Origin: Thermodesulfobacteriota bacterium
GTDB taxonomy: Bacteria; Desulfobacterota; BSN033; UBA1163
DNA: 64,000 nucleotides
Assembly (NCBI GenBank): GCA_041947025.1
Contig: JBHGBJ010000004.1
Location: forward strand, 85,580-149,579
Direction: 5' to 3'
The position numbers and the translations under genes are program-made. Below the pieces are notes generated by a model that was not told where the DNA came from, ran no database searches, and was given only the letters and a program-made list of their open reading frames with translations. Shown in pieces: positions 22,049-64,000 of the stretch (the first letter of the stretch is position 1; each line of letters starts with the position of its first letter).

Positions 22049-22759
22049 ATGAGACTGGGGGTTAATATCGACCATATCGCAACCGTGAGACAGGCCCGGG
22101 GTGTGGCTTATCCTGACCCTGTCACGGCTGCTGGGATCGTGGAGTTGGCCGGCGCAGATGGGATTGTATGCCATTTAAGAGAGGACCGGCGCCATATCCA
22201 GGATCGGGATCTACGGCTTCTCAGGGAAGTGATTCAAACCCGGCTCAATTTGGAAATGGCCGCCACCGAAGAAATGATCCGCATCGCCCTGGCCACCAAG
22301 CCCGATATCGTGACCCTTGTTCCGGAAAAGAGGGAAGAATTAACAACGGAGGGGGGTCTCGATGTCGTCAAGTCCTTTCAATCCCTGAAGAAGGGTATCC
22401 AGCGCCTCCAAAAGGGGGGCATCCCCGTCAGCCTCTTCGTCGATCCCACAAGGGACCAGATCAGGGCATCTGAAGGAGTGGGGGCCTATTCCGTCGAAAT
22501 CCACACCGGCCGCTACTGTGAGGCAAGGACTCTCGCTCAGGCAGATGAAGAGCTTAAGAAGATCCTGGATGCCATAGGAGAAGCCTCCAAACTCAATCTG
22601 CGAATCGCCGCAGGACATGGGCTCAATTATGTCAATGTCCGGCGAATCGCTGAAATTCGGGAAATCGAAGAACTAAACATCGGCCACAGCATCATCGCAA
22701 GGGCGGTCTTCGTGGGACTGGATCGAGCGGTCCGGGAGATGATTGAGCTGATCAAATAA
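22049..22759 (+). CDS. pdxJ: Pyridoxine 5'-phosphate synthase
   Basis: 236 aa; [18 protein letters not shown]... TIM-barrel PdxJ signature. Confidence 0.9.
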
Positions 22760-22774
22760 GATGCGGATTGTAGA

Positions 22775-22866
22775 GTGCGCCTGCCTGCCGCCTGCCTCCG
22801 GCAGGGGCTGGGAATGCGGAGCATAAATCCCTTATTCCGAATTCCGCACTCCGAATTCCGAATTCG
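22775..22866. repeat. Intergenic repeat block: GCCTGCCTGCCGCCTGCCTccGGCAGGGGCTGGG palindrome plus CCGAATTCCGCACTCCGAATTCCGAATTCG direct repeats
   Basis: Read directly; shares cores with the blocks at 6718, 25606, 27645 and 41075. Confidence 0.55.
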
Positions 22867-22868
22867 AT

Positions 22869-23267
22869 ATGATCATCGGCACAGGCATCGACATCGTGAA
22901 CGTCGAACGGATCCGGGGCGTAATGGCCCGTTGGGGGGATCTTTTTCTCGCCAGGGTCTTCACGTTAAGGGAAATCGTCTTGTGCCAACAAAGAACCCGC
23001 CCTTCCGAATGTTTTGCAGTCCGGTTCGCAGCCAAAGAGGCGCTTCTTAAGGCTCTTGGAAGAGGTCTTCGCAACGGCATCCAATGGACTGATATCGAAG
23101 TCGAGAGCGACCCCCTTGGGAAGCCTCTCTTCTCCCTTTATCGAAGGGCGAAAGAGGTTGTCGAAGCCCAAGGAGTCCAAAAGACTCTTCTCACTCTCTC
23201 CCACGAGCGATCTTACGCCGTGGCACACGTGATCTTAGTGGGCGGACTCCGTAGGGGCGATTCATGA
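22869..23267 (+). CDS. acpS: Holo-[acyl-carrier-protein] synthase
   Basis: 132 aa; MIIGTGIDIVNVERI N-terminus typical of AcpS; the 3' end overlaps a perfect palindrome GTAGGGGCGATTCATGAATCGCCCCTAC. Confidence 0.85.
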   Translation: MIIGTGIDIVNVERIRGVMARWGDLFLARVFTLREIVLCQQRTRPSECFAVRFAAKEALLKALGRGLRNGIQWTDIEVESDPLGKPLFSLYRRAKEVVEAQGVQKTLLTLSHERSYAVAHVILVGGLRRGDS

Positions 23268-23299
23268 ATCGCCCCTACTCCGAACTCAGAACTTAGAAA

Positions 23300-24865
23300 A
23301 TGGGGGGAATGGTGATGAAGGTAGCGACGGCCGAGCAGATGCAGGAATTGGATCGAAAGAGCATCGAGTTGTTCCGGATTCCCGGGATCGTCCTGATGGA
23401 AAACGCAGGGAGGGGGGCGGCAGAGGCCATCGCCAGCACCTTTCCCGACATTCGGACAAAGAAGATCGCCATTATCGCCGGAAAGGGAAACAACGGAGGA
23501 GATGGCTTCGTCATTGCCCGGCACTTTCTGAATCAGGGAATCCCGGTGAAGGTCTTCCTGCTGACCGATCCCAAGTCTTTGCGAGGGGATGCGGAGAGCA
23601 ATTTCAACATCTTCCACCGCATGAAGGGGGAGGTCATCCCTGTCCCCTCCACTAAGGATTATCAAAAGATCAAGAAGAGTCTGGAATCCTTCGATCTTCT
23701 GATCGATGGCATATTCGGGACAGGGCTCGATGCCGAGGTCAGGGGGTATTATCGGGAAGTGATTGACCATCTGAACACCCTGCAAAAACCCATCGTCGCC
23801 ATTGACATTCCATCCGGATTAGATGCCAATACGGGCAAACCCCTGGGCGCAGCGGTTCGGGCGACCCTGACCATCACCTTTGGCCTGCCCAAAGTCGGGC
23901 ACCTCATCGCTCCCGGATCCGATTATACGGGGACGTTGAAAGTGATCGATATCGGTATTCCAAAGAGACTGGTGGAGGAAGAAAAGATTCAGACCCACCT
24001 TCTGGAATATGATGAGATTCGAAAGGGGCTGTCCATTCCCCGACAATCCGATACCCATAAGGGAGACTACGGTCACCTGTTGGTCATCGCCGGATCGGTG
24101 GGAAAGACCGGCGCAGCCGCCATGGCTTGCGAGGCCGCTCTCAGGATGGGAGCGGGCTTAGTCACCTTGGCCATTCCCAAGAGCCTCAACCCGATCATGG
24201 AGGTGAAATTGACAGAGGTCATGACAGAGCCCCTTCCGGAGACCCCAAAACAGACATTGAGCCTCCGGGCTTTCAAATCGATTCTTCGCCTCTGTGAAAA
24301 TAAGAAGGCCGTGGTTATCGGCCCCGGCATCGGAACCTACAAGGAGACCCAATCCCTTGTCCTCAAGCTGATCAAGGCATTGGAGGTCCCTATCATCCTG
24401 GATGCGGATGGTCTGACCTCGCTGGGAGCCCAACCCAAAAACCATCTCATCAAGAGACAGCCCCTCATTCTCACCCCCCATCCGGGAGAGATGGCAAGGC
24501 TGATCGCATCCACTCCCAAAGATGTCCAGGAGGATCGAATCGCTGCCAGTAGAAATTTCGCCCAAACCCACCATGTCTATCTTGCTCTCAAAGGACATCG
24601 GACCCTGATCGCTACCCCCAGAGGTGAGATCTTCATCAATCCCACCGGAAATCCTGGATTGGCTTCAGGGGGAACCGGCGACGTACTCACCGGAATGATC
24701 GGGGGGTTGATCTCTCAGGGATTTGATATTCTCTCTTCCCTTCAGATATCGGTCTACCTTCATGGATTGGCCGGAGATACTTTGGCCCAAGAATTGGGAC
24801 AGAAATCTCTGGTGGCGACGGACCTCATTCAAAAGATCCCTTCCCTTCTCCGGGGAAGGATTTGA
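23300..24865 (+). CDS. nnr: Bifunctional NAD(P)H-hydrate repair enzyme (NnrE epimerase plus NnrD dehydratase; YjeF family)
   Basis: 521 aa; YjeF N-terminal domain (GKGNNGGDG) and C-terminal carbohydrate-kinase-like domain (GSVGKTGAA...GGTGDVL). Confidence 0.85.
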   Translation: MGGMVMKVATAEQMQELDRKSIELFRIPGIVLMENAGRGAAEAIASTFPDIRTKKIAIIAGKGNNGGDGFVIARHFLNQGIPVKVFLLTDPKSLRGDAESNFNIFHRMKGEVIPVPSTKDYQKIKKSLESFDLLIDGIFGTGLDAEVRGYYREVIDHLNTLQKPIVAIDIPSGLDANTGKPLGAAVRATLTITFGLPKVGHLIAPGSDYTGTLKVIDIGIPKRLVEEEKIQTHLLEYDEIRKGLSIPRQSDTHKGDYGHLLVIAGSVGKTGAAAMACEAALRMGAGLVTLAIPKSLNPIMEVKLTEVMTEPLPETPKQTLSLRAFKSILRLCENKKAVVIGPGIGTYKETQSLVLKLIKALEVPIILDADGLTSLGAQPKNHLIKRQPLILTPHPGEMARLIASTPKDVQEDRIAASRNFAQTHHVYLALKGHRTLIATPRGEIFINPTGNPGLASGGTGDVLTGMIGGLISQGFDILSSLQISVYLHGLAGDTLAQELGQKSLVATDLIQKIPSLLRGRI

Positions 24866-25559: not shown

Positions 25560-25745
25560 TGACAAGTGCCAAATTACAAGCGCCAAATAACAAATAAATT
25601 CCCCTGTCTGCCCCCGCCGGCGGCAGGGGCAGGCAGGAATCACCAAGAATTGGAAATTCCAACCAAAATTGTTTCGGTGATTCGGATCTGGAAATTGTGA
25701 TTTATTTGGGATTTGGAATTTGTGATTTGAGATTTGAAGGCGTCC
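25560..25745. repeat. Intergenic repeat block: CCCCTGTCTGCCCCCGCCGGCGGCAGGGGCAGGCAGG palindrome, GAATCACC...GGTGATTC inverted repeat, and GGAAATT/GATTTGG heptamer-like repeats
   Basis: Read directly. Confidence 0.55.
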
Positions 25746-25749
25746 AAAG

Positions 25750-26226
25750 GTGCTCCTTCATTCCAAGAGTGCATCCGAAACGATTCGCATCGGGAAATAC
25801 ATTGGGGGCCTGCTCTTGCCCGGAGATGTTGTGGCCTTATCCGGCGAATTGGGAACAGGGAAGACCCAATTCATCAAAGGCCTGGCTGCGGGGTTGGGGA
25901 TCAGGAAGTCTGCAAAGATCATGAGCCCCTCGTTTACGCTGATCCATGAGTACGTCGGAAAGGTGCGGTTTTATCATATCGATCTTTACCGGCTCGAGTC
26001 TGAAAAAGAGGCCGAAGAATTGGGATTGGAGGAATATTTCCAGGCCGGAGGAATCACGGCGATCGAATGGGCGGATCGAATACCTTCCTTGCTTCCCCAA
26101 GAGGTTTTCTGGATATCCATTCGTTACACTGGAGAGCACACCCGATCCTTTGAAATGATCGGCAAAGGGAAACGATATGTAGAGCTTCTAAAAAATGCGG
26201 AGTTCGGAGTGCGGAGCATCTTATAG
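25750..26226 (+). CDS. tsaE: tRNA threonylcarbamoyladenosine biosynthesis ATPase TsaE (YjeE)
   Basis: 158 aa; P-loop [13 protein letters not shown]; non-ATG start likely. Confidence 0.8.
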
Positions 26227-26315
26227 CTGAAAGCTCAAAGTTCAAAGCTCAAAGGTTTTTCACTTTCAACTTTGGGCTTAAGAAACTCCGATCTATCCCG
26301 CAGGGAGGTTTCAGC

Positions 26316-33027: not shown

Positions 33028-34883
33028 ACGCCGCCCAACCGGACAAGGAATTCGAAGCGCTCCTCGAATACCTTCAAAGCACCCGTGGGTTTGATTTCGC
33101 GGCCTACAAGAGGCCCAGTCTGATGCGTCGGGTGACCAAGCGCATGCAGATGATTAAGATAGATAAATTCTCAGACTACATGGACTACCTGGAGGTTCAT
33201 CCCGAGGAGTTTGCACAGCTCTTTGACACCATCCTGATTAACGTCACCTCTTTTTTCCGTGATCAACCTGCCTGGGACTTTCTTTCCCAGCAGATTCTTC
33301 CGAAAATCCTGGAAGCGAAGAGGTCGAACGATCCCATCCGCGTCTGGAGCGCCGGCTGCGCCTCCGGCGAAGAAGCTTACAGCATTGCCATTTTGTTTGC
33401 AGAGGCCCTCGGCCCTGATGCATTTCGTGATCGCGTGAAGATCTATGCCACGGACGTGGATGAAGAGGCTCTCACCCACGCCCGCCACGCAAGCTACAGT
33501 GAAAAGGACCTCGATCCTGTTCCTCCGGAGCTTCGGGAAAAGTATTTTGAGCATGGGGCGAGCCGCCTGATTTTTCGCAATGACCTCCGCCGCTCCGTCA
33601 TCTTCGGTCGTCACGACCTGGTCCAGGATGCTCCCATCTCGCGCCTCGATCTTCTCACATGCCGCAACACCCTGATGTATTTCAACGCGGAGATTCAAGG
33701 CCGCATCCTGGCCCGGTTCCATTTCGCCCTCAATGATCCCGGCTACCTCTTCCTGGGAAGGGCTGAAATGCTTCTGACACACACCAGTATCTTCACTCCG
33801 GTAGAGCTGAAATGCCGTATCTTCTCGAAAGTCCCCAAGATTCAGATGCGCGACCGGCTCCTCGTCCTTGCCCAGGCAGGAAACATGGAGGTCGGAAACC
33901 ATCTGGCCAGACAGTTGCGTGTCCGCGATGTCGCCTTCGAATCGTCTCCCATGGCGCAGATCGTGGTCGATGCCGATGGAAACCTGGCCATGGCCAGCGA
34001 ACGGGCAAGGACGCTGTTCGGTCTCACCCAGAGGGATGTCGGACGTCCCTTTCAGGACCTTGAACTGTCTTATCGACCGATCGATCTGAGATCCCTGATC
34101 GACAAATGCGAAAACGAGAGGCGCATCGTGAAGGCGGAGAATGTCCAACGTCAACTGTCGGATGGATCGCCCCAGTCTCTTGAAATCCAGCTGACCCCCT
34201 TGGTCGAGAACGGCGCAACCATTGGGGTGAGCATCGTTTTTAACGATCAGACCCGCTATCTTAAGCTCCAGGAAGAGCTTCAGCGCAACCAACAGGAGCT
34301 CGAAACCGCCTACGAAGAGCTTCAGTCAGCCAACGAAGAGCTCGAAACCACCAACGAGGAACTCCAGTCGACCAATGAAGAGCTTGAAACCACCAACGAG
34401 GAGCTCCAGTCTTCGAACGAAGAGCTGGAAACCATGAACGAAGAGCTCCAATCCACGAACGAAGAGCTTTCGACGATCAATGAGGAGCTGCGGCAGCGCA
34501 CGGAAGAGCTCAACCAGACAAACGCTTTTCTTCAATCGATCCTCGGCAGCCTCCACGGCGGGGTTGCCGTCTTGGATGCAAGGCAAAACATCATCTCCTG
34601 GAGCCGCAGGGCAGAGGACCTCTGGGGACTTCGCCCCGAAGAGGTCCAAGGCCGGTCTTTCGTAAGCCTCGATATTGGCCTGCCCGTAGAAGAGCTGAAG
34701 ACGGCGATTCGGGCCTGTCTCGTGGCAGATTCCGAATACGAGGAAGTCATCGTCGATGCGGTCAATCGCAAGGGCAGGACCATCAATTGTCGCGTCACCT
34801 GCACCCCCATTGTCGGAGCGGCCAAGGAGCGCCATGGCGCCATCCTGATGATGGAAGAGCTCGATTCCGGATGCAAGAAATAG
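33024..34883 (+). CDS. CheR-type SAM-dependent methyltransferase fused to a coiled-coil with repeated NEELQST/NEELETT heptads and a C-terminal PAS domain
   Basis: CheR N-terminal and MTase motifs (VWSAGCASGEEAYSIAI); 21-bp imperfect tandem coding repeats at about 34290-34500; start overlaps the cheB-like stop. Confidence 0.8.
   Translation: MNAAQPDKEFEALLEYLQSTRGFDFAAYKRPSLMRRVTKRMQMIKIDKFSDYMDYLEVHPEEFAQLFDTILINVTSFFRDQPAWDFLSQQILPKILEAKRSNDPIRVWSAGCASGEEAYSIAILFAEALGPDAFRDRVKIYATDVDEEALTHARHASYSEKDLDPVPPELREKYFEHGASRLIFRNDLRRSVIFGRHDLVQDAPISRLDLLTCRNTLMYFNAEIQGRILARFHFALNDPGYLFLGRAEMLLTHTSIFTPVELKCRIFSKVPKIQMRDRLLVLAQAGNMEVGNHLARQLRVRDVAFESSPMAQIVVDADGNLAMASERARTLFGLTQRDVGRPFQDLELSYRPIDLRSLIDKCENERRIVKAENVQRQLSDGSPQSLEIQLTPLVENGATIGVSIVFNDQTRYLKLQEELQRNQQELETAYEELQSANEELETTNEELQSTNEELETTNEELQSSNEELETMNEELQSTNEELSTINEELRQRTEELNQTNAFLQSILGSLHGGVAVLDARQNIISWSRRAEDLWGLRPEEVQGRSFVSLDIGLPVEELKTAIRACLVADSEYEEVIVDAVNRKGRTINCRVTCTPIVGAAKERHGAILMMEELDSGCKK
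34290..34500 (+). repeat. Coding 21-bp tandem repeats (about 9 units) encoding heptads E-E-L-(Q/E)-(S/T)-(T/A)-N
   Basis: Read directly in both DNA and translation. Confidence 0.7.
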
Positions 34884-34912
34884 ATTCGGACACCGGCGCC
34901 CAGGATATCCCC

Positions 34913-37870
34913 ATGAAGGCAACAAACAAGACCAAAGCAGATCTGATCGAAAAGAACAAGGATGCGGGGCGGAGCCTTAAAGAGGCCAAAGAGAAGCTAT
35001 CAACTCACCGGAAAGATGAAGCTACGCTTCTCCTTGCCCAGGAACTGGCGCACACCATCCTTGACCAGTCAACAGAAGTCATCATGATCTGCGATGAAAA
35101 TGGCAAAATTATTCAGGCGAGCCAGATGGCACACCGGTACTTCGGAGCAAAGATACTACGCCAGCAATTTGATTCTCTCTGCCGTTTGTCGATCACATCC
35201 CCTTCTCCCTTGCAACCAAATCAGTTTTCCGTCTCCTCCGTTTTGTCGGGCAAGATCATCCGCTCTCTGGAAGTCACTCACAGAGGAGATGATGCCAAAG
35301 AGTCCTATTTCCTCCTGAGATCAAGGCCCTTAACCCATAATGGAAAGAGAATCTTGGGTTGCGTCGTCAGCCTGACTGACATCACCGAGCGCAAGCAAGC
35401 GGAGGAGGAGCTCAGAAATTCTCGTAACGAGCTGGAAAGAAGGGTTCTGGAACGAACTGCCGAACTGTCAGCGACCAATGAACAATTGAAGACCGAAATC
35501 GACATCCGCAAGCAAACCGAAAAGGTTCTGGAAAAGATGACCCGGGAACTGTCGGAACGAGTCAAGGAAATAAACTGTCTCCATTCTGTCTGCTATTCCA
35601 TTGAAAAGAGGTACCTTGGAGTAGATGAGAAACTTGAAAATATTGTTCACCAAATTCCGTCAGGGTGGCAGTTTTCCGAGATCGCCTGTGCGAGAATCAC
35701 TCTGGAAGAAAATGAGTACCGAACCGATAACTTCAAAGAGACCCCGTGGAGGCAGGCGAGTCAAATCGTGTTTGATGGCCGCGAAGTCGGGGCGATCGAG
35801 GTCTACTATCTGGAAGAAAGACCCGAGGCGGATGAGGGACCTTTCCTCAAGGAGGAGAGGGATCTCATTAACACGATTGCCATTGAATTAGGAGAGATGA
35901 TTGCCCATCTCCAGGCGGACGAGGCCATCAAAAGAGAACGGCAGCGATTTAATGATGTCCTGGAGATCCTGCCGGTTTACGTGGTCCTCTTGTCACCGGA
36001 TTATCACGTGCCTTTTGCCAATCGCTTCTTCCGGGAGCGCTTCGGTGAGTCCCAGGGTCGGCGCTGCTTTGAATACTTGTTTGACCGAAGGGAGCCCTGC
36101 GAGGTTTGTGAAACCTATACCGTTGTGAAGACCCACGCCCCTCACCACTGGGAGTGGAAGGGCCCGGACAATCGGATTTACGACATCTACGATTTCCCCT
36201 TTACGGACACGGACGGTTCCCCCCTCATCATGGAGATGGGCATCGACATTACCGAGCGGAAGCGGGCAGAAGAGGCCCTGAGGACCGCCCACCAATACAA
36301 CCGGAGCCTCATCGAGGCAAGCCTTGATCCCCTCGTTACCATAGACGCGAACGGCAAAGTGATGGATGTAAACAGTGCTACGGAGCGGGTGACCGGCGTT
36401 TCCCGCAACGAAATCATCGGCAGCGATTTCTCAAGTTACTTCACAGAACCGGAGAAGGCAGAGGAAGGTTATCAAAAGGTCTTCGCAGAAGGATCGGTCA
36501 GAGATTATCCCCTTGCCATCCGTCACGAATCGGGCAAGGTCACCGATGTCTTATACAACGCCGCCGTCTATAAGAACGAGGCCGGTGAAGTCCGGGGCGT
36601 TTTTGCTGCGGCAAGGGACGTGACTGAGCTCGCGGAGACCAGGAAGCATATCGAAGCGACCAATGCTCTCCTCAGTCTCTTTGTCAAGATGCGAGCACGG
36701 AGCGATTATCTCGATGCAGTCCTGAAGCTGATCCAAGCCTGGACCGGCTGCCGATGCGTGGGCATCCGGGTATTGAATGAAAGAGATTATATCCCCTATG
36801 AATCCTATGTGGGATTCGGCCGGGAGTTCTGGGAATCGGAGAATTTGCTCTCCGTGAAATATGACCAGTGCGCTTGCATCAGGGTGATCACCGGCAACCC
36901 CGATCCTCAAGATCTTCGGACCATGACACCGGCAGGCTCTTTTCGTTGTGAGAATACCTTTGAATTTGTCGGAGGCCTATCGGAAGAGGAGAAGGCAAGG
37001 TTCAGAGGCGTCTGCATCCAGAATGGGTTCAGGTCGGTTGCCATCATTCCCATTCGTTACCGCGATCGGGTCCTCGGTGCAGTTCATCTGGCAGACGAAA
37101 GAGCGGCCCATGTGCCGCTCACGAGAATAGAATTTATCGAATCCATGGCGCCCCTGATCGGAGAGGCAATGAACCGGTTCAATTTGGAGGAAGAATTGAA
37201 AGATTCGGAGAACCGGCTCCGGTATCTCTCTTCTCAGCTTCTGACCGTCCAGGAAAATGAGAGGAAACGGATTTCAAGGGAGGTTCATGACAGTCTCGGA
37301 CAAACCCTTGCTGCGATAAAATTCGGATTGGAAAGCAAGCTGAGCCAGATGGGCAAAGGTTCCGCACCGCCGGGAGTCTCTGTAGAAGGTCTCATCTCTC
37401 TGACTCAAAACGGGATCGATGAGGCCCGAAGAATCCAGATGGATCTCAGACCTTCGATCCTCGATGATCTCGGGATCATCTCCACCCTCAGCTGGTTCTG
37501 CCGGGAATTCCAAAGGATCTATCCGGCGATCCGGATCGAAACGCAGATCGCTGTCCAGGAAGAAGAAATATCCGGCCCCCTCAAAACCGTGATCTATCGG
37601 GTGATGCAGGAGGCCCTGAATAATACCGCCAAACATAGCAAGGCAGACCGCGTCCGCCTTTCTCTGGGAAAAGCCGACTCTAAGATGCAGCTGATCATCG
37701 AAGACAATGGGAGAGGATTCGACCCGGAAGGTCTGATTTTAACCCAAGGCCCTGAGAGAGGAATCGGCCTCAGCAGCATGAGAGAGCGAACCGAATTTGC
37801 CGGCGGGGTTTTCACCATCGAAGCGGCTATCGGAAAAGGAACGACGATCAAAGCGAGCTGGCCCATTTGA
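34913..37870 (+). CDS. Multi-sensor signal-transduction histidine kinase (several PAS domains, a GAF domain, HisKA_3 dimerisation/phospho-acceptor and HATPase_c)
   Basis: H-box REVHDSLGQTLAAIKF (HisKA_3, pairs with NarL/LuxR response regulators); N/G boxes near the C-terminus; PAS-like blocks; Cys cluster RRCFEYLFDRREPCEVCE. Confidence 0.8.
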   Translation: MKATNKTKADLIEKNKDAGRSLKEAKEKLSTHRKDEATLLLAQELAHTILDQSTEVIMICDENGKIIQASQMAHRYFGAKILRQQFDSLCRLSITSPSPLQPNQFSVSSVLSGKIIRSLEVTHRGDDAKESYFLLRSRPLTHNGKRILGCVVSLTDITERKQAEEELRNSRNELERRVLERTAELSATNEQLKTEIDIRKQTEKVLEKMTRELSERVKEINCLHSVCYSIEKRYLGVDEKLENIVHQIPSGWQFSEIACARITLEENEYRTDNFKETPWRQASQIVFDGREVGAIEVYYLEERPEADEGPFLKEERDLINTIAIELGEMIAHLQADEAIKRERQRFNDVLEILPVYVVLLSPDYHVPFANRFFRERFGESQGRRCFEYLFDRREPCEVCETYTVVKTHAPHHWEWKGPDNRIYDIYDFPFTDTDGSPLIMEMGIDITERKRAEEALRTAHQYNRSLIEASLDPLVTIDANGKVMDVNSATERVTGVSRNEIIGSDFSSYFTEPEKAEEGYQKVFAEGSVRDYPLAIRHESGKVTDVLYNAAVYKNEAGEVRGVFAAARDVTELAETRKHIEATNALLSLFVKMRARSDYLDAVLKLIQAWTGCRCVGIRVLNERDYIPYESYVGFGREFWESENLLSVKYDQCACIRVITGNPDPQDLRTMTPAGSFRCENTFEFVGGLSEEEKARFRGVCIQNGFRSVAIIPIRYRDRVLGAVHLADERAAHVPLTRIEFIESMAPLIGEAMNRFNLEEELKDSENRLRYLSSQLLTVQENERKRISREVHDSLGQTLAAIKFGLESKLSQMGKGSAPPGVSVEGLISLTQNGIDEARRIQMDLRPSILDDLGIISTLSWFCREFQRIYPAIRIETQIAVQEEEISGPLKTVIYRVMQEALNNTAKHSKADRVRLSLGKADSKMQLIIEDNGRGFDPEGLILTQGPERGIGLSSMRERTEFAGGVFTIEAAIGKGTTIKASWPI

Positions 37871-37965
37871 ATTTCAGATTTCAGATTTCAAATTTCAAAT
37901 TTTAAATCTCAGATTGAAGAAAGACAAACCATTTGAATTTCAGATTTCAAATTGAAGATCCATCA
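37871..37965. repeat. Heptamer array (GATTTCA / AATTTCA units); the inverted complement of the array lies at 38400-38450
   Basis: TGAATTTCAGATTTCAGATTTCAAATTTCAAATTT versus CAATCTGAAATCTGCAATTTGAAATTTGAAATT. Confidence 0.6.
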
Positions 37966-38034
37966 GGAAACATTGCTCAATTGATCGCAGATTCAAATGC
38001 TTTCTTAAATGTGAAATGATTTCGGGAGGGCTAA

Positions 38035-38388
38035 ATGGACCAGGAACAGCTGAAAGTAAGAACGAAGGAATTTGCAAAACAAGTGATCTCTTTGTGTAGA
38101 CAGCTTCCTGCTACAGGGAAGGGAGACTGATTGGAGACCAATTTTTCGCTCGGGCACTTCGGTAGGAGCAAATTACAGGGCAGCCTGCCGGGCACGGTCA
38201 AGGCCGGATTTTATCTCGAAGCTCAGTATCGTGCTGGAAGAAACGGACGAATCGCTTTACTGGATGGAGATCCTTAATGAAAATAGGATTCTGAATTCAA
38301 AACCTCTTCCGGGGTTAATGAAAGAGGCAAAAGAACTCATTGCCATTTTCGTTTCAAGTCTGAATACGGCCAGGGGTAGGCAATAAAT
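38035..38388 (+). pseudogene. Four-helix-bundle protein gene (TIGR02436-like; formerly called 23S rRNA intervening-sequence protein) disrupted by frameshifts
   Basis: N-terminal part MDQEQLKVRTKEFAKQVISLCRQLPATGKGD in one frame; C-terminal part FRSGTSVGANYRAACRARSRPDFISKLSIVLEETDESLYWMEILNE... in another frame. One break falls in a T5 run. Confidence 0.5.
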
Positions 38389-38399
38389 ACCGCCCAATT

Positions 38400-38450
38400 T
38401 CCAATGCGTTTCATGTTTCAATCTGAAATCTGCAATTTGAAATTTGAAAT
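38400..38450. repeat. Right-hand heptamer inverted repeat, partner of 37871-37965
   Basis: See the partner feature. Confidence 0.6.
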
Positions 38451-38455
38451 TAGTT

Positions 38456-39115
38456 TTATTCTCGTGAGACCAGGCCTTTTTCGATGGCGAAGGCGGTCAG
38501 GGCTTGTACATTATGGAAGTCCAGTTTCTCCATGATGTTGGCCCGGTGTTTCTCAATCGTTTTCACGCTGATGCAAAGCTCCTGGGCAATCTCCTTATTC
38601 TTATATCCTTCTGCAATCATCTTCAGGACTTCACGTTCCCGGGGGGTCAGCGATTCCCAGGCCGTGCGCGTTTTCAAGGTTTTCCTTCCTTCCAGGTACC
38701 CCTCGATCACTTTCTCGGAAACCTCCGGGCTGATATAAGGTTTGCCGCTCAACACTTTTCTGACCGCCATCACTAATTCTGTGTGGGTGGAATCCTTTAA
38801 AAGATATCCGTCAGCTCCCGCCTTCAGCGTATTGAGAATATACTCCTCAGCCCTGTGGACGGTCAAAACCAGGATCCTCGTCTTCGGACACTGCCTCTTG
38901 ATCTCCCGGATGGCTTCCATTCCATTCATCCGGGGCATGGAAAGATCGGTCAGGATCAGATCCGGCTTATGTTCCTCAACCTGTCGGATCGCCTCACGGC
39001 CATCTTCAGCCTCCGCCACGATCTCAAATTCCGGGTGAGAAGAGAGAAGGGATTTTAAGCCCTCCCTGAGGATGGTATGGTCTTCAGCGATTACAATTCG
39101 AAACTTTTTCTCCAT
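38456..39115 (-). CDS. NarL/LuxR-family response regulator (REC plus LuxR HTH)
   Basis: Likely start MEKKFRIVIAEDH; LILTDLSMPRMNG receiver Asp; C-terminal LTPREREVL...IAQEL.ISVKTIEKHRANIMEKL. Confidence 0.85.
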   Translation of the reverse strand: MEKKFRIVIAEDHTILREGLKSLLSSHPEFEIVAEAEDGREAIRQVEEHKPDLILTDLSMPRMNGMEAIREIKRQCPKTRILVLTVHRAEEYILNTLKAGADGYLLKDSTHTELVMAVRKVLSGKPYISPEVSEKVIEGYLEGRKTLKTRTAWESLTPREREVLKMIAEGYKNKEIAQELCISVKTIEKHRANIMEKLDFHNVQALTAFAIEKGLVSRE

Positions 39116-46574: not shown

Positions 46575-48320
46575 CTACGCAATATTCCAGATTCCCATCA
46601 TTCCGAGGTCTTCGTGCTCAACGATGTGGCAATGGAACATGGACGTGCCCGCGAAATCCATCACCGACATGAGAATCCTCACGCTGCCCATGGCCGGGAC
46701 CAAGACCGTGTCCTTCCACGCTGGCACGCTCGTGTAAAACGCGGCGTACTCGGGGTCGCCCCCGTTAATGGCCAGCACCTGGCACGGATTGACGTGATGG
46801 TGAAAGGGATGATCCATCATGCTGTGGTTGAAAATCTCCCAGACCTCGTAGGTGCCGAGCTTCGAGTGGATCGTATGGGCGATCATCCTGCCATGGGGAT
46901 CGCCGGTCCCGGTGCCGTGGCCGTGGCCGCTCGAATCGTGAAGGAGAAGAGGACGGCCTTGATCCCCTGCGAGTTCGAATGTGATACCATTGATCGCGGC
47001 AAGTCCATGACCCATATTCGTGCCACTCATGTTCACGCCACCCATATTCATGCCGCTCATGTTCATGCCACGGCCCATACCCATCATACCCATGCCCATG
47101 CCGTGGCCCATGCTGAGGGTGAGTTGCTCTGTCTTGACCGGTGCCACCCGGACTCGAGTGGCGCCGGGGTTGACGGAAGCGGGCAGTTGGTCCGCAATGC
47201 GTTCCCCGCGATAAGAAAGGGTCAGGAGCGTGTGTTGCTGCATCGCGCCCATGCCTTGCCCACCGCAGTTGCCCATGCAGTGGCCGCTGCGGTTGTAAGG
47301 AAGCGAGAACAATCGGTAGCTCTTCTCGCTCTGGTCGGCCTTCACCAACAGATCCACGCGCTCGCCCGGTGAGAGGAGGAGAGAATTCACCGCGTAAGGC
47401 TTGTCGAGCAGCCCGCCTTCCGTACCGATGACGTGAAGGGGATGGCCCTCCAGGCTCAGCTTGTAGAAACGCGCGTTGCTGGCGTTGATGACCTTCCAGC
47501 GCTGGACCTGGCCCGGCTTGATGCTCATCACGGGGTTGACCTGTCCATTGACCATCACGACGTCGCCCTCTTTACCGTGCACGTAATCCATCATTGAGGT
47601 GTGGGCGCCGGGTTTTCCCTCCCCGATGCTGATGTCCTTGAGAAGGAGCAGACGAGTCTCGTAGCCGGCCAAGGCCTTGACCTCGTCCGCAACCTCCAGG
47701 GCCCCGGCCAACCCGCCCCACATCTGCTCGGCGACGGAACCGTGAATGTGGGGATGATAGAAATTCAGTGTGCCAGCCGGATGTTTCGACAGGTCATAAT
47801 CATAGACGAAGGTCTCATCGGTCATGCAGATGATCATGACGTTGTCGGAATTGCCGGAGGGAGAGACGTGCAACCCGTGGGTGTGGAGGTTACTGATGTC
47901 CCGGTCGTGGCCCATAAGGTTGTTGCCCAGCATGGAGAGGGAATTTTTGAAGCGGATCTGCAACCGGTCGCCGCTCTTGACCCGGATCGTCGGCCCGGGA
48001 TAACTGCCGTTATACGTGAGCAGTTGGGCCTCAGTGCCTCCGATACGGACGGGTGTGACCTTGGCTTCGAGGCTGACGATGACCTGTTTTGGATCATTAC
48101 TTTGGTTGGCAGCGACAGGCGGTTCCTTGAATGGATCTCCCGGTGGCGGATCAATCACTGCCACCTGGCCTCCTCCCATCATTCCCATTCCCCTCATCCC
48201 CATCATCCCGCCTCTCATCCTGGCCATTGCCGGATCAGCCTTCAGGCCGAGATAGGCCCCTGCAAGACCCAGGGATGTGAGCTTAAAGAAATCTCTTCGA
48301 TTCAAATTTCGCTTCTTCAT
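46575..48320 (-). CDS. Multicopper oxidase (CopA/CueO-like) with Tat signal and Met/His/Gly-rich inserts
   Basis: Tat motif NRRDFFKL; type-1/2/3 copper motifs HTHGLHV and HCHIVEHEDLGMMG; Met-rich tracts MRGGMMGMRGMGMMGGG and GHGMGMGMMGMGRGMNMSGMNMG. Confidence 0.88.
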   Translation of the reverse strand: MKKRNLNRRDFFKLTSLGLAGAYLGLKADPAMARMRGGMMGMRGMGMMGGGQVAVIDPPPGDPFKEPPVAANQSNDPKQVIVSLEAKVTPVRIGGTEAQLLTYNGSYPGPTIRVKSGDRLQIRFKNSLSMLGNNLMGHDRDISNLHTHGLHVSPSGNSDNVMIICMTDETFVYDYDLSKHPAGTLNFYHPHIHGSVAEQMWGGLAGALEVADEVKALAGYETRLLLLKDISIGEGKPGAHTSMMDYVHGKEGDVVMVNGQVNPVMSIKPGQVQRWKVINASNARFYKLSLEGHPLHVIGTEGGLLDKPYAVNSLLLSPGERVDLLVKADQSEKSYRLFSLPYNRSGHCMGNCGGQGMGAMQQHTLLTLSYRGERIADQLPASVNPGATRVRVAPVKTEQLTLSMGHGMGMGMMGMGRGMNMSGMNMGGVNMSGTNMGHGLAAINGITFELAGDQGRPLLLHDSSGHGHGTGTGDPHGRMIAHTIHSKLGTYEVWEIFNHSMMDHPFHHHVNPCQVLAINGGDPEYAAFYTSVPAWKDTVLVPAMGSVRILMSVMDFAGTSMFHCHIVEHEDLGMMGIWNIA

Positions 48321-62065: not shown

Positions 62066-64000
62066 ATGAGAATGGCAAATGTTTGGTCTAAGATTCTTAT
62101 CTTGCTCTTCGTGATTGAGGCAGTCGCCCTTTTTGGGACCACTCAATCTTTAAAGGGACAGCCGACAGAAGGAATTCCGACTTCCCCTCCGGTGGGCCCT
62201 TCCACACCTTTAACTCCGACCCCTCCTCAATTCCCTGGTCCGATTCCAAAAGAATCGTCTCCCGCTCTGCCACCCATGGGGCCTGTTCCATCCCAAACGC
62301 CCCCTCAACTTCCCGGCCCGATTCCAAAAGAATCCTCTCCCGCTCAGCCGCCTATGGGGCCTGTCCCGTCCAAAACGCCTCCCCAGCCTCCCGTTCCAAG
62401 TCCTCAGGAACCTCTTGCCCCTCAGCCACCCATCCCCCCTGCTCCGTCCCAAATGCCAGGACAGCCTCCGACTGTCCCCTCCCCACCGAAAAAAGGCCCG
62501 GATACCCGGACAACGTCGGGGATTGTTTTTAATTTTGACAACGCCGATCTCTACGAGGTGATCCGTGTCATGGCAGAGGTATTGAAGATCAATTACATCA
62601 TCGACCCAGCGGTCAAAGGGATCGTCAATATTCACACCTCAGGCCAGATCTCGGCCGAGGATACCCTCGCGATCTTCCAATCCATCCTGAAGTTAAATGG
62701 AGCAACTGCCGTTAAGAAAGACAATCTTTATGAAATCGTTCCCTTCGGCGACGCGAAGAAGCTCTACACATCTCCGTCAACCATCGAGGAGAGCAAAAAG
62801 ATTGTTCCCGATGGAAGATATATGATCGAGATCGTCCCCTTAAAATATATCCCGGTCACAGAGGCTTCAAAGATCATCAAACCCTTTCTATCCGACGGAG
62901 CCGATATTGTGGAGCATCCGGCTCATAATATTCTGATCATGGGTGACGTTGCGCAAAATATCAAGAAGATCCTCGACATTCTCGCACTCTTTGATATTGA
63001 CATCTTCACCGACTTGAGAGTCAGGATCTACCCTGTCTTGAATGCGGATGTGACGGAGATCTCCAAGGAAATGGAGCGGATCTTTTCCTCCTTTGAGATC
63101 TCGACGAAGTCGGGCAGGGGCGTGGGCATCACCTTTACACCGGTTGCCCGAATTAACTCGCTCCTGGTCGTCAGCTCCATCCCGAATATTTTCGGAAAAG
63201 TGGAGGGCTGGCTTAAAGAACTCGACAAGACCCCCCTGGAGACAAAATTCGGTGTCTTCGTCTACTATTGCCAGAACGCCAAAGCCAAGGATCTGGTCGA
63301 TGTTTTAAAGGGCGTATTCATTGGGGCCAAAGAAAAGAAAGAAGAATTTAAGGCCAAAGTGACCGAGCCGACTCCCAGAGGAATCAGACAGCCCCCTGCC
63401 GCGACTCCTCCTGCTTCAACGCCTCCGACCCAGGAAGAATCCGCAACTGTGCCAGAAGGAGAAATCAACATCGTCGCGGATGAGGCAAACAATGCCGTGG
63501 TCATCCGGGCTTATGCCAGAGACTACAGGAGCATCCTGGAAACCGTCAAGAGGCTGGATATCTACCCGAGGCAGGTCCTGATCGAGGTGCTGCTTGCCGA
63601 CGTCACCTTGAATGACGACACCCAGTTCGGCATTGAGTGGTCGAGATTTCTGACAAGCAAGTCCCCCAATGCCCAGAGCATCGTGATGCAGGCACAACCG
63701 CCTACCGACCCTTTGACCTCATCGCTTTCCGGGACGGTCACCGGCGGGTTTCGATACGCGATTGTGGACGTAGGGCAAAGGATTTCTGCTGCGATCCGAT
63801 TGGCCGCGTCGGAAGGTCGCGTGAATGTGAGAATTTCACCGACCATCCTCGCCTCCAACAATAAGGAGTCGAAGATTCAAATCGGATCTTCACAACCCAT
63901 CCCTACCGGCGTGTTCACTTCGACCACCGTGTCCGCTGCCGCTTCGGGTGTCGTTGAAACTTCGGTGGAATATAAAGATATCGGCACGATCCTCACCGTG
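62066..64000 (+). CDS. gspD: Secretin (GspD family), 3' end off-window, with a proline-rich N-terminal extension containing a 78-bp tandem duplication
   Basis: RBS AAGGAGGA; signal peptide; N0/N1-like domains (VFNFDNADLYEVIRVMAEVLKINYIIDP); start of the secretin domain (GIEWS...). Absent from the ORF table because no stop occurs before the window end. Confidence 0.85.
   Translation, partial: MRMANVWSKILILLFVIEAVALFGTTQSLKGQPTEGIPTSPPVGPSTPLTPTPPQFPGPIPKESSPALPPMGPVPSQTPPQLPGPIPKESSPAQPPMGPVPSKTPPQPPVPSPQEPLAPQPPIPPAPSQMPGQPPTVPSPPKKGPDTRTTSGIVFNFDNADLYEVIRVMAEVLKINYIIDPAVKGIVNIHTSGQISAEDTLAIFQSILKLNGATAVKKDNLYEIVPFGDAKKLYTSPSTIEESKKIVPDGRYMIEIVPLKYIPVTEASKIIKPFLSDGADIVEHPAHNILIMGDVAQNIKKILDILALFDIDIFTDLRVRIYPVLNADVTEISKEMERIFSSFEISTKSGRGVGITFTPVARINSLLVVSSIPNIFGKVEGWLKELDKTPLETKFGVFVYYCQNAKAKDLVDVLKGVFIGAKEKKEEFKAKVTEPTPRGIRQPPAATPPASTPPTQEESATVPEGEINIVADEANNAVVIRAYARDYRSILETVKRLDIYPRQVLIEVLLADVTLNDDTQFGIEWSRFLTSKSPNAQSIVMQAQPPTDPLTSSLSGTVTGGFRYAIVDVGQRISAAIRLAASEGRVNVRISPTILASNNKESKIQIGSSQPIPTGVFTSTTVSAAASGVVETSVEYKDIGTILTV
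62233..62388 (+). repeat. Two tandem 78-bp coding repeats, each encoding a 26-aa unit ([F/L]PGPIPKESSPA[L/Q]PPMGPVPS[Q/K]TPPQ)
   Basis: CGATTCCAAAAGAATC recurs at 62241 and 62319. Confidence 0.6.

Follow-up and report, generated by a model that had tools for sequence, protein, structure and literature searches.

An inactivated four-helix-bundle gene between inverted heptamer arrays: a probable copy of a cassette resembling rRNA intervening sequences

In the window (the whole stretch of 64,000 nt of Thermodesulfobacteriota DNA that was analysed), the spacer between a sensor histidine kinase ORF and a LuxR-type ORF occupies positions 37871–38455, that is, 585 bp rather than the 580 bp given in an earlier, sequence-only reading, and is filled by one copy of a cassette that combines a small gene with tandem heptamer arrays. 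The kinase gene, the upstream neighbour (34787..37870, plus strand, start codon uncertain), has orthologs with PAS/GAF/HisKA_3/HATPase_c domains, and its TGA stop codon (37868–37870, plus strand) is directly adjoined by the first heptamer of the cassette. The downstream neighbour is a convergent gene for a LuxR/GerE-type response regulator (38456..39115, minus strand, 219 aa from MEKKF), the stop codon of which lies 4 nt beyond the end of the last array.

The left, 5′ array consists of about seven units (37870..37918, plus strand), in the order GATTTCA three times, AATTTCA twice, AATTTTA, AATCTCA and then GATTGAA; a tandem repeat finder reports period 7 and 6.6 copies at 37870–37915. The right, 3′ array of about five units (38417..38451, plus strand; 4.6 units at 38420–38451) reads TTCAATC, TGAAATC, TGCAATT, TGAAATT, TGAAATT, the reverse complement of the left array. 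With 6.6 and 4.6 units, both are simple repeats in the usual sense of at least three tandem 7-nt units in non-coding DNA. The outer inverted-repeat arms, 34 nt each (37885–37918 and 38417–38450), are 88% complementary, in agreement with the earlier description of a gene bracketed by inverted repeats of about 35 bp built from GATTTCA and AATTTCA heptamers. Direct and inverted repeat detection also revealed a second short array of three units (37929..37959, plus strand), ahead of which CCATTTGA repeats the 25 nt at 37863–37887 (96%), the final 8 nt of the kinase gene included, and the 5′ leader contains a local hairpin (37926..38003, plus strand; arms 37926–37945 and 37984–38003, 80% complementary). 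This hairpin is present in the minimum-energy fold, and the closing stem of the minimum-energy fold of the cassette RNA is formed by pairing of the arrays (z = -3.35).

Allowing at most one mismatch, ATTTCARATTTCA has eight matches in the 64 kb, all at the cassette locus, compared to 0.45 expected from shuffles, and the ATTTCAR-type heptamer is confined to this locus within the window. The question of whether the heptamers occur only here has a divided answer: the GATTTCA type is unique in the 64 kb, but arrays with other unit sequences are found at two further loci of the window, around acpS and tsaE. A promoter and terminator consensus scan of positions 37600–38700 yielded no plus-strand promoter, with counts at the level of shuffles. 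Rfam searches identified no family, rRNA included, in the whole 64-kb window at the gathering threshold, and nothing credible in the cassette at E values up to 10, the top match being IMES-3 with 17.9 bits against a gathering score of 55.

Direct reading of the sequence identifies a Shine-Dalgarno-like GGGAGGG (38024..38030, plus strand) 4 nt ahead of the ATG at 38035, where the cassette gene starts. When aligned with three intact orthologous genes, the window gene has 1-nt gaps at exactly two places, one after ACA at 38115 and the other in CAATT-TTTCGC, within a T5 run (38142–38146). Codons 1–27 (MDQEQLKVRTKEFAKQVISLCRQLPAT; 38035..38115, plus strand) form the first segment, which, read onward in the same frame, runs into a premature TGA at 38128–38130; the 11 codons between the two deletions (REGRLIGDQFF; 38115..38147, plus strand) are in a second frame, and the remainder (RSGTSVGANYRAACRARS ... 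NTARGRQ, then stop; 38147..38386, plus strand) is in a third. The sequence-only reading had recognised the gene as broken, with one break in the T5 run, and both points stand, but there are two breaks and three frames, not two frames.

The frame-repaired product of 117 aa matches TIGR02436 with 86.6 bits (cut-off 24; profile positions 4–108 of 109) and PF05635 with 59.2 bits (cut-off 33.8), as well as PDB entry 2rld, which has five chains (E = 4.6e-17). The cassette gene is a member of the TIGR02436/PF05635 (23S_rRNA_IVP) four-helix-bundle (4HB) family, as had been proposed from the sequence for a gene of the 23S rRNA intervening sequence (IVS) class in the kinase–LuxR gap. The family motif is GxxRxxxSxxxNxxE (PMC3936711); the product retains R-x3-S-x3-N (RSGTSVGAN), and the final E is replaced by A (ANYRAA) in the window product and in all close homologs, so that this replacement looks like a trait of the subfamily. 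No single intact ORF of about 110–125 codons exists in the window copy which, as assembled, is a pseudogene of the PF05635 family that cannot produce the full-length protein.

The intact copies are under strong purifying selection on the 4HB protein, with dN/dS of 0.03–0.12 among orthologs of the same lineage (A1, see below) with unsaturated dS, which implies that the protein matters to the host or to the cassette. The suggestion of a decaying passenger gene accordingly holds for the window copy and for broken orthologous copies at four other loci (L110, L113, L120 and L137), but not for the family. Comparison of the repaired window gene with the orthologs gives dN/dS of 0.02–0.05, so the inactivation in the window is either recent or an artefact. 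An intact gene in the organism, with both frameshifts introduced as assembly or consensus errors, would fit this signature of selection on the repaired gene and the nature of the breaks, both of them single-base deletions and one in the T5 run; furthermore, exact look-up of the frameshift fragments (51 aa and 31 aa) found neither on record as an independent assembly. Nevertheless, this explanation is rather unlikely, and both deletions are probably real. Over 7,191 nt, two Logan contigs assembled independently from SRR29307520 agree with the window at 100%, without gaps, which indicates that the assembly is not prone to indels (one of them, L001, stops inside the right array). In addition, a database of 5.8 billion proteins contains no intact version closer than 88% identity, and the four broken orthologous cassettes show that such damage occurs elsewhere.

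The T5 run had also invited the idea of a phase-variable gene, or of programmed frameshifting at this run. One break does fall in the run, but the idea is very unlikely to be correct: five thymines are a short run for slippage, the orthologs have TTCTTC at this position and a single frame, and the second break, a separate 1-nt deletion 31 nt upstream, is not in a long run. With a net shift of -2, two recoding events would be required to read through.

The closest database proteins, with 88% and 86% identity, are intact and 116 aa long. Their genes have a PAS/HisKA_3 kinase gene on one side and a convergent GerE regulator gene on the other, with ATTTCAR arrays in inverted orientation as flanks; the best genome match is a Thermodesulfobacteriota MAG, at 84%. 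In several related lineages, the corresponding site carries the A1 cassette as well (77–82% nucleotide identity), so by sequence comparison the cassette is not a recent arrival at the window site. We surveyed this site in 80 metagenome loci with LuxR orthologs of 71–83% identity, of which 42 allowed the kinase end to be located. In 10 loci, the distance from the end of the LuxR match to the end of the kinase C-terminal match is 11–45 nt; these comprise nine empty sites (11–37 nt), with the two stop codons 1 nt apart in one of them (L107), and one site with the right array alone (L143). In relatives that lack the cassette, the spacer thus measures just a few bases. One locus (L111) has only a hairpin, with both arrays around a loop of about 25 nt that retains the unique 3′ cassette sequence AATGCATTTTATGTTTCAAT, which implies that the hairpin arose by internal deletion of a full cassette. 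Short remnants of 116–285 bp were identified in four loci, including a truncated 4HB gene (L125), and 27 loci are occupied by inserts of 439–954 bp.

At least three 4HB lineages are represented at the occupied sites, and the heptamer type is specific to the lineage without exceptions: ATTTCAR in lineage A1, to which the window copy belongs, GARTGCG in lineage A2, and GAGACRC in lineage B, a diverged classical NIAEA type, the cassette of which was seen in both orientations. Counting of 4HB genes at the LuxR loci gave at least 34 occupied among 65, with a profile from close relatives that missed the type-B genes of two loci (L100 and L101). From the empty, hairpin-only and differently occupied orthologous sites, we conclude that the spacer unit is an insertion cassette, and the same comparison of sequences indicates that the arrays are part of the cassette and not of the site, and that this site has seen repeated gain, loss and replacement of cassettes.

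No target-site duplication was evident between empty and occupied sites, the sequences of which are too diverged for close comparison, and the duplication of CCATTTGA (37863 and 37929) is on one side of the cassette only. Neither a transposase nor a recombinase was found with the cassette either, so that the term "mobile" derives from comparative evidence only. Of the proposal of a small mobile or MITE-like element, the insertion cassette is upheld by the polymorphism of the site; a strict MITE it is not, given the gene, the lack of a detected duplication and the single copy of this repeat type in the window.

To assess how general the combination of gene and arrays is, we used a genome set of 80 loci, the best matches to one 4HB subfamily, which come from many phyla. 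In 50 of these loci, period-7 arrays occur no more than 300 nt away from the 4HB gene. Their density is 1.08 per kb near the gene compared to 0.117 per kb further off; for periods 5, 6 and 8–11, it does not exceed 0.027 per kb. When the 300-nt flanks were compared in inverted orientation, the best ungapped match reached a score of at least 14 in 62 of 78 loci, and 16 lack a clear inverted repeat. The same score is reached by 69 of 390 mismatched flank pairs (18%) and by 9 of the 78 loci in direct orientation (Mann-Whitney p = 3e-26). The units vary by locus (GATTGCG, GAGTGCG, GATTTTA, GATTTAC, GAAGTCA and others), and the arms agree within each locus. Phasing of the heptamers yields the consensus G-A-T/a-T-G/T-C/t-R, with a median array length of 4.3 units (interquartile range 3.6–5.0).

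The resulting design, 5′-(GATTKYR)n ... gene ... (YRMAATC)n-3′, has fixed polarity, with a 5′ arm of the GA.T type in 61 of 62 cassettes, and adjacent array pairs without a gene are arranged forward-then-reverse in 11 cases and reverse-then-forward in none. Mismatches within the arms, counted to tell selection on the RNA from selection on the DNA, comprise 41 G-U and 27 A-C (p = 0.11), with no clear bias toward G-U. A plain RNA stem would not require fixed arm polarity, and this polarity, together with the lack of a clear G-U bias, indicates that more than base pairing is at work. The correlation between protein similarity and heptamer type is weak (rho = -0.19, p = 0.0015), for which reason a clear protein-to-repeat recognition code was rejected.

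Among cultured strains, the design is found on plasmids of Nostoc punctiforme (NPUN_RS34315, on pNPUN01, with GTCGGAR units) and Gloeocapsa PCC 7428 (GLO7428_RS25575, with GATTTTA units), where the cassette is squeezed between two co-directional genes. Plasmid matches of the 4HB subfamily are mostly cyanobacterial, 16 of the 31 being from Nostoc. Alignment of two copies from one cyanobacterial genome (L052 and L053) showed that both belong to a larger duplication. We detected no 23S rRNA signature motifs in any fetched locus.

The observations on the site bear on a different account, in which the hairpins belong to the host as ordinary intergenic elements (simple-sequence repeats, terminators or REP-like sequences), the arrays are a target, and 4HB genes land in the loops. 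Heptamer hairpins without a gene are indeed common in the same genomes (L092, L089 and L095, as well as one in the pdxJ–acpS spacer of the window), and about half of the period-7 arrays in the fetched loci have no detectable 4HB gene within 300 nt. Under this account, one would not expect empty orthologous kinase/LuxR sites without any arrays, three 4HB lineages at one site with a different heptamer type each, or a hairpin that retains unique 3′ cassette sequence, as in L111, which points to origin from a full cassette. We regard this account as improbable. Still less likely is that the arrays are operators for the neighbouring LuxR/NarL-type regulator, with the small gene in its regulon. NarL-family regulators do bind heptamer motifs, and the arrays adjoin the regulator gene, but these arrays are at the 3′ ends of both convergent genes and not at promoters, orthologous kinase/LuxR pairs work without them, and the same architecture surrounds 4HB genes in unrelated neighbourhoods of many phyla. 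Finally, the least probable reading is that the gene serves as Avd accessory gene in a diversity-generating retroelement (DGR): PF05635 is homologous to Avd (PMC10053308) and a joined type-B protein gives a weak bAvd match, but no reverse transcriptase gene was seen in the window ORF list at 35–41 kb or within about 3 kb in the orthologous loci.

We consider it likely that the spacer is a copy of a widespread, IVS-like selfish cassette located outside rRNA, the gene of which was recently inactivated in this genome. The cassette consists of a 4HB gene of about 116 codons and two inverted arrays of three to seven tandem heptamers each. In a transcript of either strand, the arms would be expected to form a stem of about 30 bp around the gene. 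By analogy with the RNase III cleavage of the Coxiella rRNA IVS, RNase III probably cuts this stem in read-through transcripts, which would free the host transcripts of the insert and render it harmless, while a stable 3′ hairpin would remain between the convergent genes.

The polarity of the arms suggests that some factor probably reads the arrays directionally, and the conserved 4HB protein is the obvious candidate for the array reader. This protein, which has five chains per crystal entry and is probably pentameric, probably binds arrays of about five heptamers and is probably needed for the spread or upkeep of the cassette, and such a need would explain its conservation. Array-to-array recombination between sites is the simplest candidate for movement of the cassette, and recombination between the two inverted arms could also yield the gene in both orientations.

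More tentatively, the 4HB proteins of the 23S-IVS family in general might be specific partners, and perhaps propagators, of heptamer arrays, forming a selfish gene-plus-repeat system comparable to RAYT/REP. The rRNA IVS would then be one landing site of this system and the gene-less hairpins its deletion derivatives, and the system could account for much of the prokaryotic excess of heptanucleotide repeats, including the cyanobacterial STRRs and their binding factor. The old puzzle of tandem heptanucleotide repeats, cyanobacterial STRRs among them, is tied to that of the 4HB family by three observations: fixed-polarity inverted arrays in at least 10 phyla, the joint gain and loss of gene and arrays at one site, and gene-less hairpins derived from the full cassette. 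PF05635/TIGR02436 is a very large family of obscure function, with at least about 8,000 relatives recovered in one search, known since 1993 only as the ORF of rRNA IVS, and more recently for its kinship with Avd. Heptamers are reported to be the most frequent of the long simple repeats in many bacterial genomes, and heptamer arrays also explain a practical nuisance, namely that short-read contigs break there. Taken by itself, the window offers a modest finding, namely an old copy that is now inactivated.

The 4HB family itself, its occurrence in rRNA IVS, its kinship with Avd and the heptamers in the Coxiella IVS are already known. Our literature search identified no paper that ties 4HB genes in general to flanking heptamer arrays, the Coxiella paper alone noting heptamers, in one IVS; nor did it turn up a description of the gene with its arrays as a mobile cassette that gives rise to gene-less derivatives. 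A general link between 4HB genes and heptamer arrays is plausible but unproven.

With MITEs, the cassette shares terminal inverted repeats, presence/absence polymorphism at orthologous sites and internal-deletion derivatives such as the hairpin of L111. In contrast to MITEs and their parent insertion sequences, its termini are tandem repeats, it has no transposase gene, and no target-site duplication was found. MITEs are, moreover, defined by the lack of coding capacity and by many copies, whereas the cassette carries a gene and has ATTTCAR matches at one locus in 64 kb. The resemblance to REP/RAYT systems (REPINs) consists of a gene between inverted short repeats and of gene-less intergenic hairpin doublets in both. 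However, REPs are single palindromes of 20–40 nt, whereas the repeats of the cassette are tandem heptamer arrays, and RAYT is an HUH Y1 transposase with known cleavage chemistry, whereas the product of the window gene is a PF05635 four-helix bundle; we know of no catalytic activity of the 4HB protein.

The fold of this protein is homologous to that of Avd, a pentamer with affinity for nucleic acid and for the DGR reverse transcriptase, whereas the cassette gene is stand-alone, accompanied by heptamer arrays and with no reverse transcriptase gene seen nearby. Cyanobacterial STRRs and other prokaryotic heptanucleotide repeats are, like the cassette arrays, intergenic tandem heptamers, usually of three to six units and in both orientations. 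The classic STRR units differ from GATTKYR, and in the literature searched, repeats of the STRR type are not linked to a gene; a Nostoc study seeks the as yet unidentified factor that binds heptamer repeats.

The closest parallel is with the 23S rRNA IVS of Leptospira and Coxiella burnetii, which encode the same protein family (S23p/23S_rRNA_IVP). The sporadic distribution of rRNA IVS suggests horizontal transfer (PMC4990558). In C. burnetii, the IVS is 428 nt long, contains the S23p ORF of the 4HB family and is closed by a 28-bp terminal stem that is cut by RNase III in vitro, with mapped RNA ends within the stem; ahead of the ORF are three tandem GACAGAT heptamers, the first of which is the site of the 5′ cut, the number of repeats varies by strain, and the ORF is decayed in some strains (PMC4990558). 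The window cassette, at about 580 nt, is located between kinase and regulator genes instead of in an rRNA helix, with no rRNA in the window, and RNase III excision, demonstrated for the rRNA element, is a prediction for the cassette. Of the features of an IVS, the complementary termini that form a long enclosing stem are present in the cassette, and location in rRNA is not. In the comparison with rRNA IVS, recommended in the sequence-only reading, the Coxiella element has the same design (PMC4990558): similar size, a terminal stem enclosing the ORF (28 bp there and 34 nt here), and tandem heptamers just upstream of the ORF that vary in number, with decay of the ORF in some copies of both elements.

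At the kinase/LuxR site, where the window carries a broken copy of the four-helix-bundle gene (4HB gene; TIGR02436/PF05635), the loci with the LuxR orthologs closest to the window's (L100 and L101, 82-83%) encode a type-B 4HB gene, that is, one accompanied by GAGACRC heptamers, which is itself interrupted after the residues NIAEA (L100 2552-3195). The interrupter is a gene for a GIY-YIG nuclease of 77 aa (domain score 53 bits), and the two 4HB halves cover positions 1-55 and 60-104 of the PF05635 profile and score 90.8 bits when joined. The GIY-YIG gene is a selfish gene nested within the cassette gene. The 4HB gene of Nostoc sp. S13 (L054 5001-5345), which aligns to the profile as two pieces (1-67 and 69-115), is apparently a further interrupted copy.

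In the window itself, the left side of the cassette, and only that side, carries a duplicated junction: a direct duplication of 25 nt (96%; 37863-37887 and 37929-37953) comprises the kinase gene's final 8 nt (CCATTTGA) together with the start of the array, and possibly arose by unequal recombination between arrays. One of the two Logan contigs matching the window (L001) ends at 38421, inside the heptamer array adjoining the LuxR gene, and the short-read contigs L118, L127 and L157 likewise terminate within the LuxR-side array. The heptamer arrays break assemblies, so metagenome bins probably under-represent or truncate such cassettes.

Heptamer arrays of a type other than that of the kinase/LuxR cassette flank acpS, in the pdxJ-acpS spacer (22757-22872) and beyond acpS (23228-23302), with the units GATGCGG and GAGTGCG in forward and ATTCCGA and ACTCCGA in reverse orientation. 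In the spacer, the forward and reverse arrays pair with each other, with a GC-rich hairpin inside (MFE -41.6, z = -1.9), and the structure looks like a heptamer hairpin of the GARTGCG type without a gene; in related genomes, this type accompanies a 4HB gene. Arrays also bracket tsaE (25750-26226), which is a housekeeping gene and yet lies between GATTTGR arrays upstream (25685-25738) and two arrays downstream (26196-26257), the first of GAGTTCG/GAGTGCG and the second of AAAGCTC/AAAGTTC. Because the final 30 nt of the tsaE ORF traverse the first downstream array, the annotated C-terminus may be repeat-derived. Two mutually similar GC-rich palindromes (22779-22812, cctgcctgccgcctgcctccggcagg..., and 25603-25637, ctgcccccgccggcggcaggggcaggcagg), one in each of two spacers, adjoin heptamer arrays; these palindromes may be terminators or belong to a second family of small repeats.

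Among other tandem repeats, one of coding type directly upstream of the kinase ORF (34272-34511; period 21/42/84 nt, ~8.7 copies, consensus ACCAACGAAGAGCTCCAAACC) encodes a 7-residue protein repeat, and those at 47010-47113, 48174-48209 and 62225-62433 comprise CAT/CCC-rich units of 15/30 nt and 9 nt as well as a unit of 78 nt present in 2.7 copies.

In the flanks of the 4HB loci L021 (3542-3640 and 8817-8932) and L098 (3912-4058 and 6555-6840), which come from one MAG of Deltaproteobacteria and one of Bacteroidota, there are very long, pure arrays of other heptamers. Across these two loci, the units are GGTGTCA (13 copies), GTGGTCA (15), AACTTTT (40) and GATAATT (20). The cyanobacterial STRR2 repeat has the unit TTGGTCA, which the GTGGTCA unit resembles.
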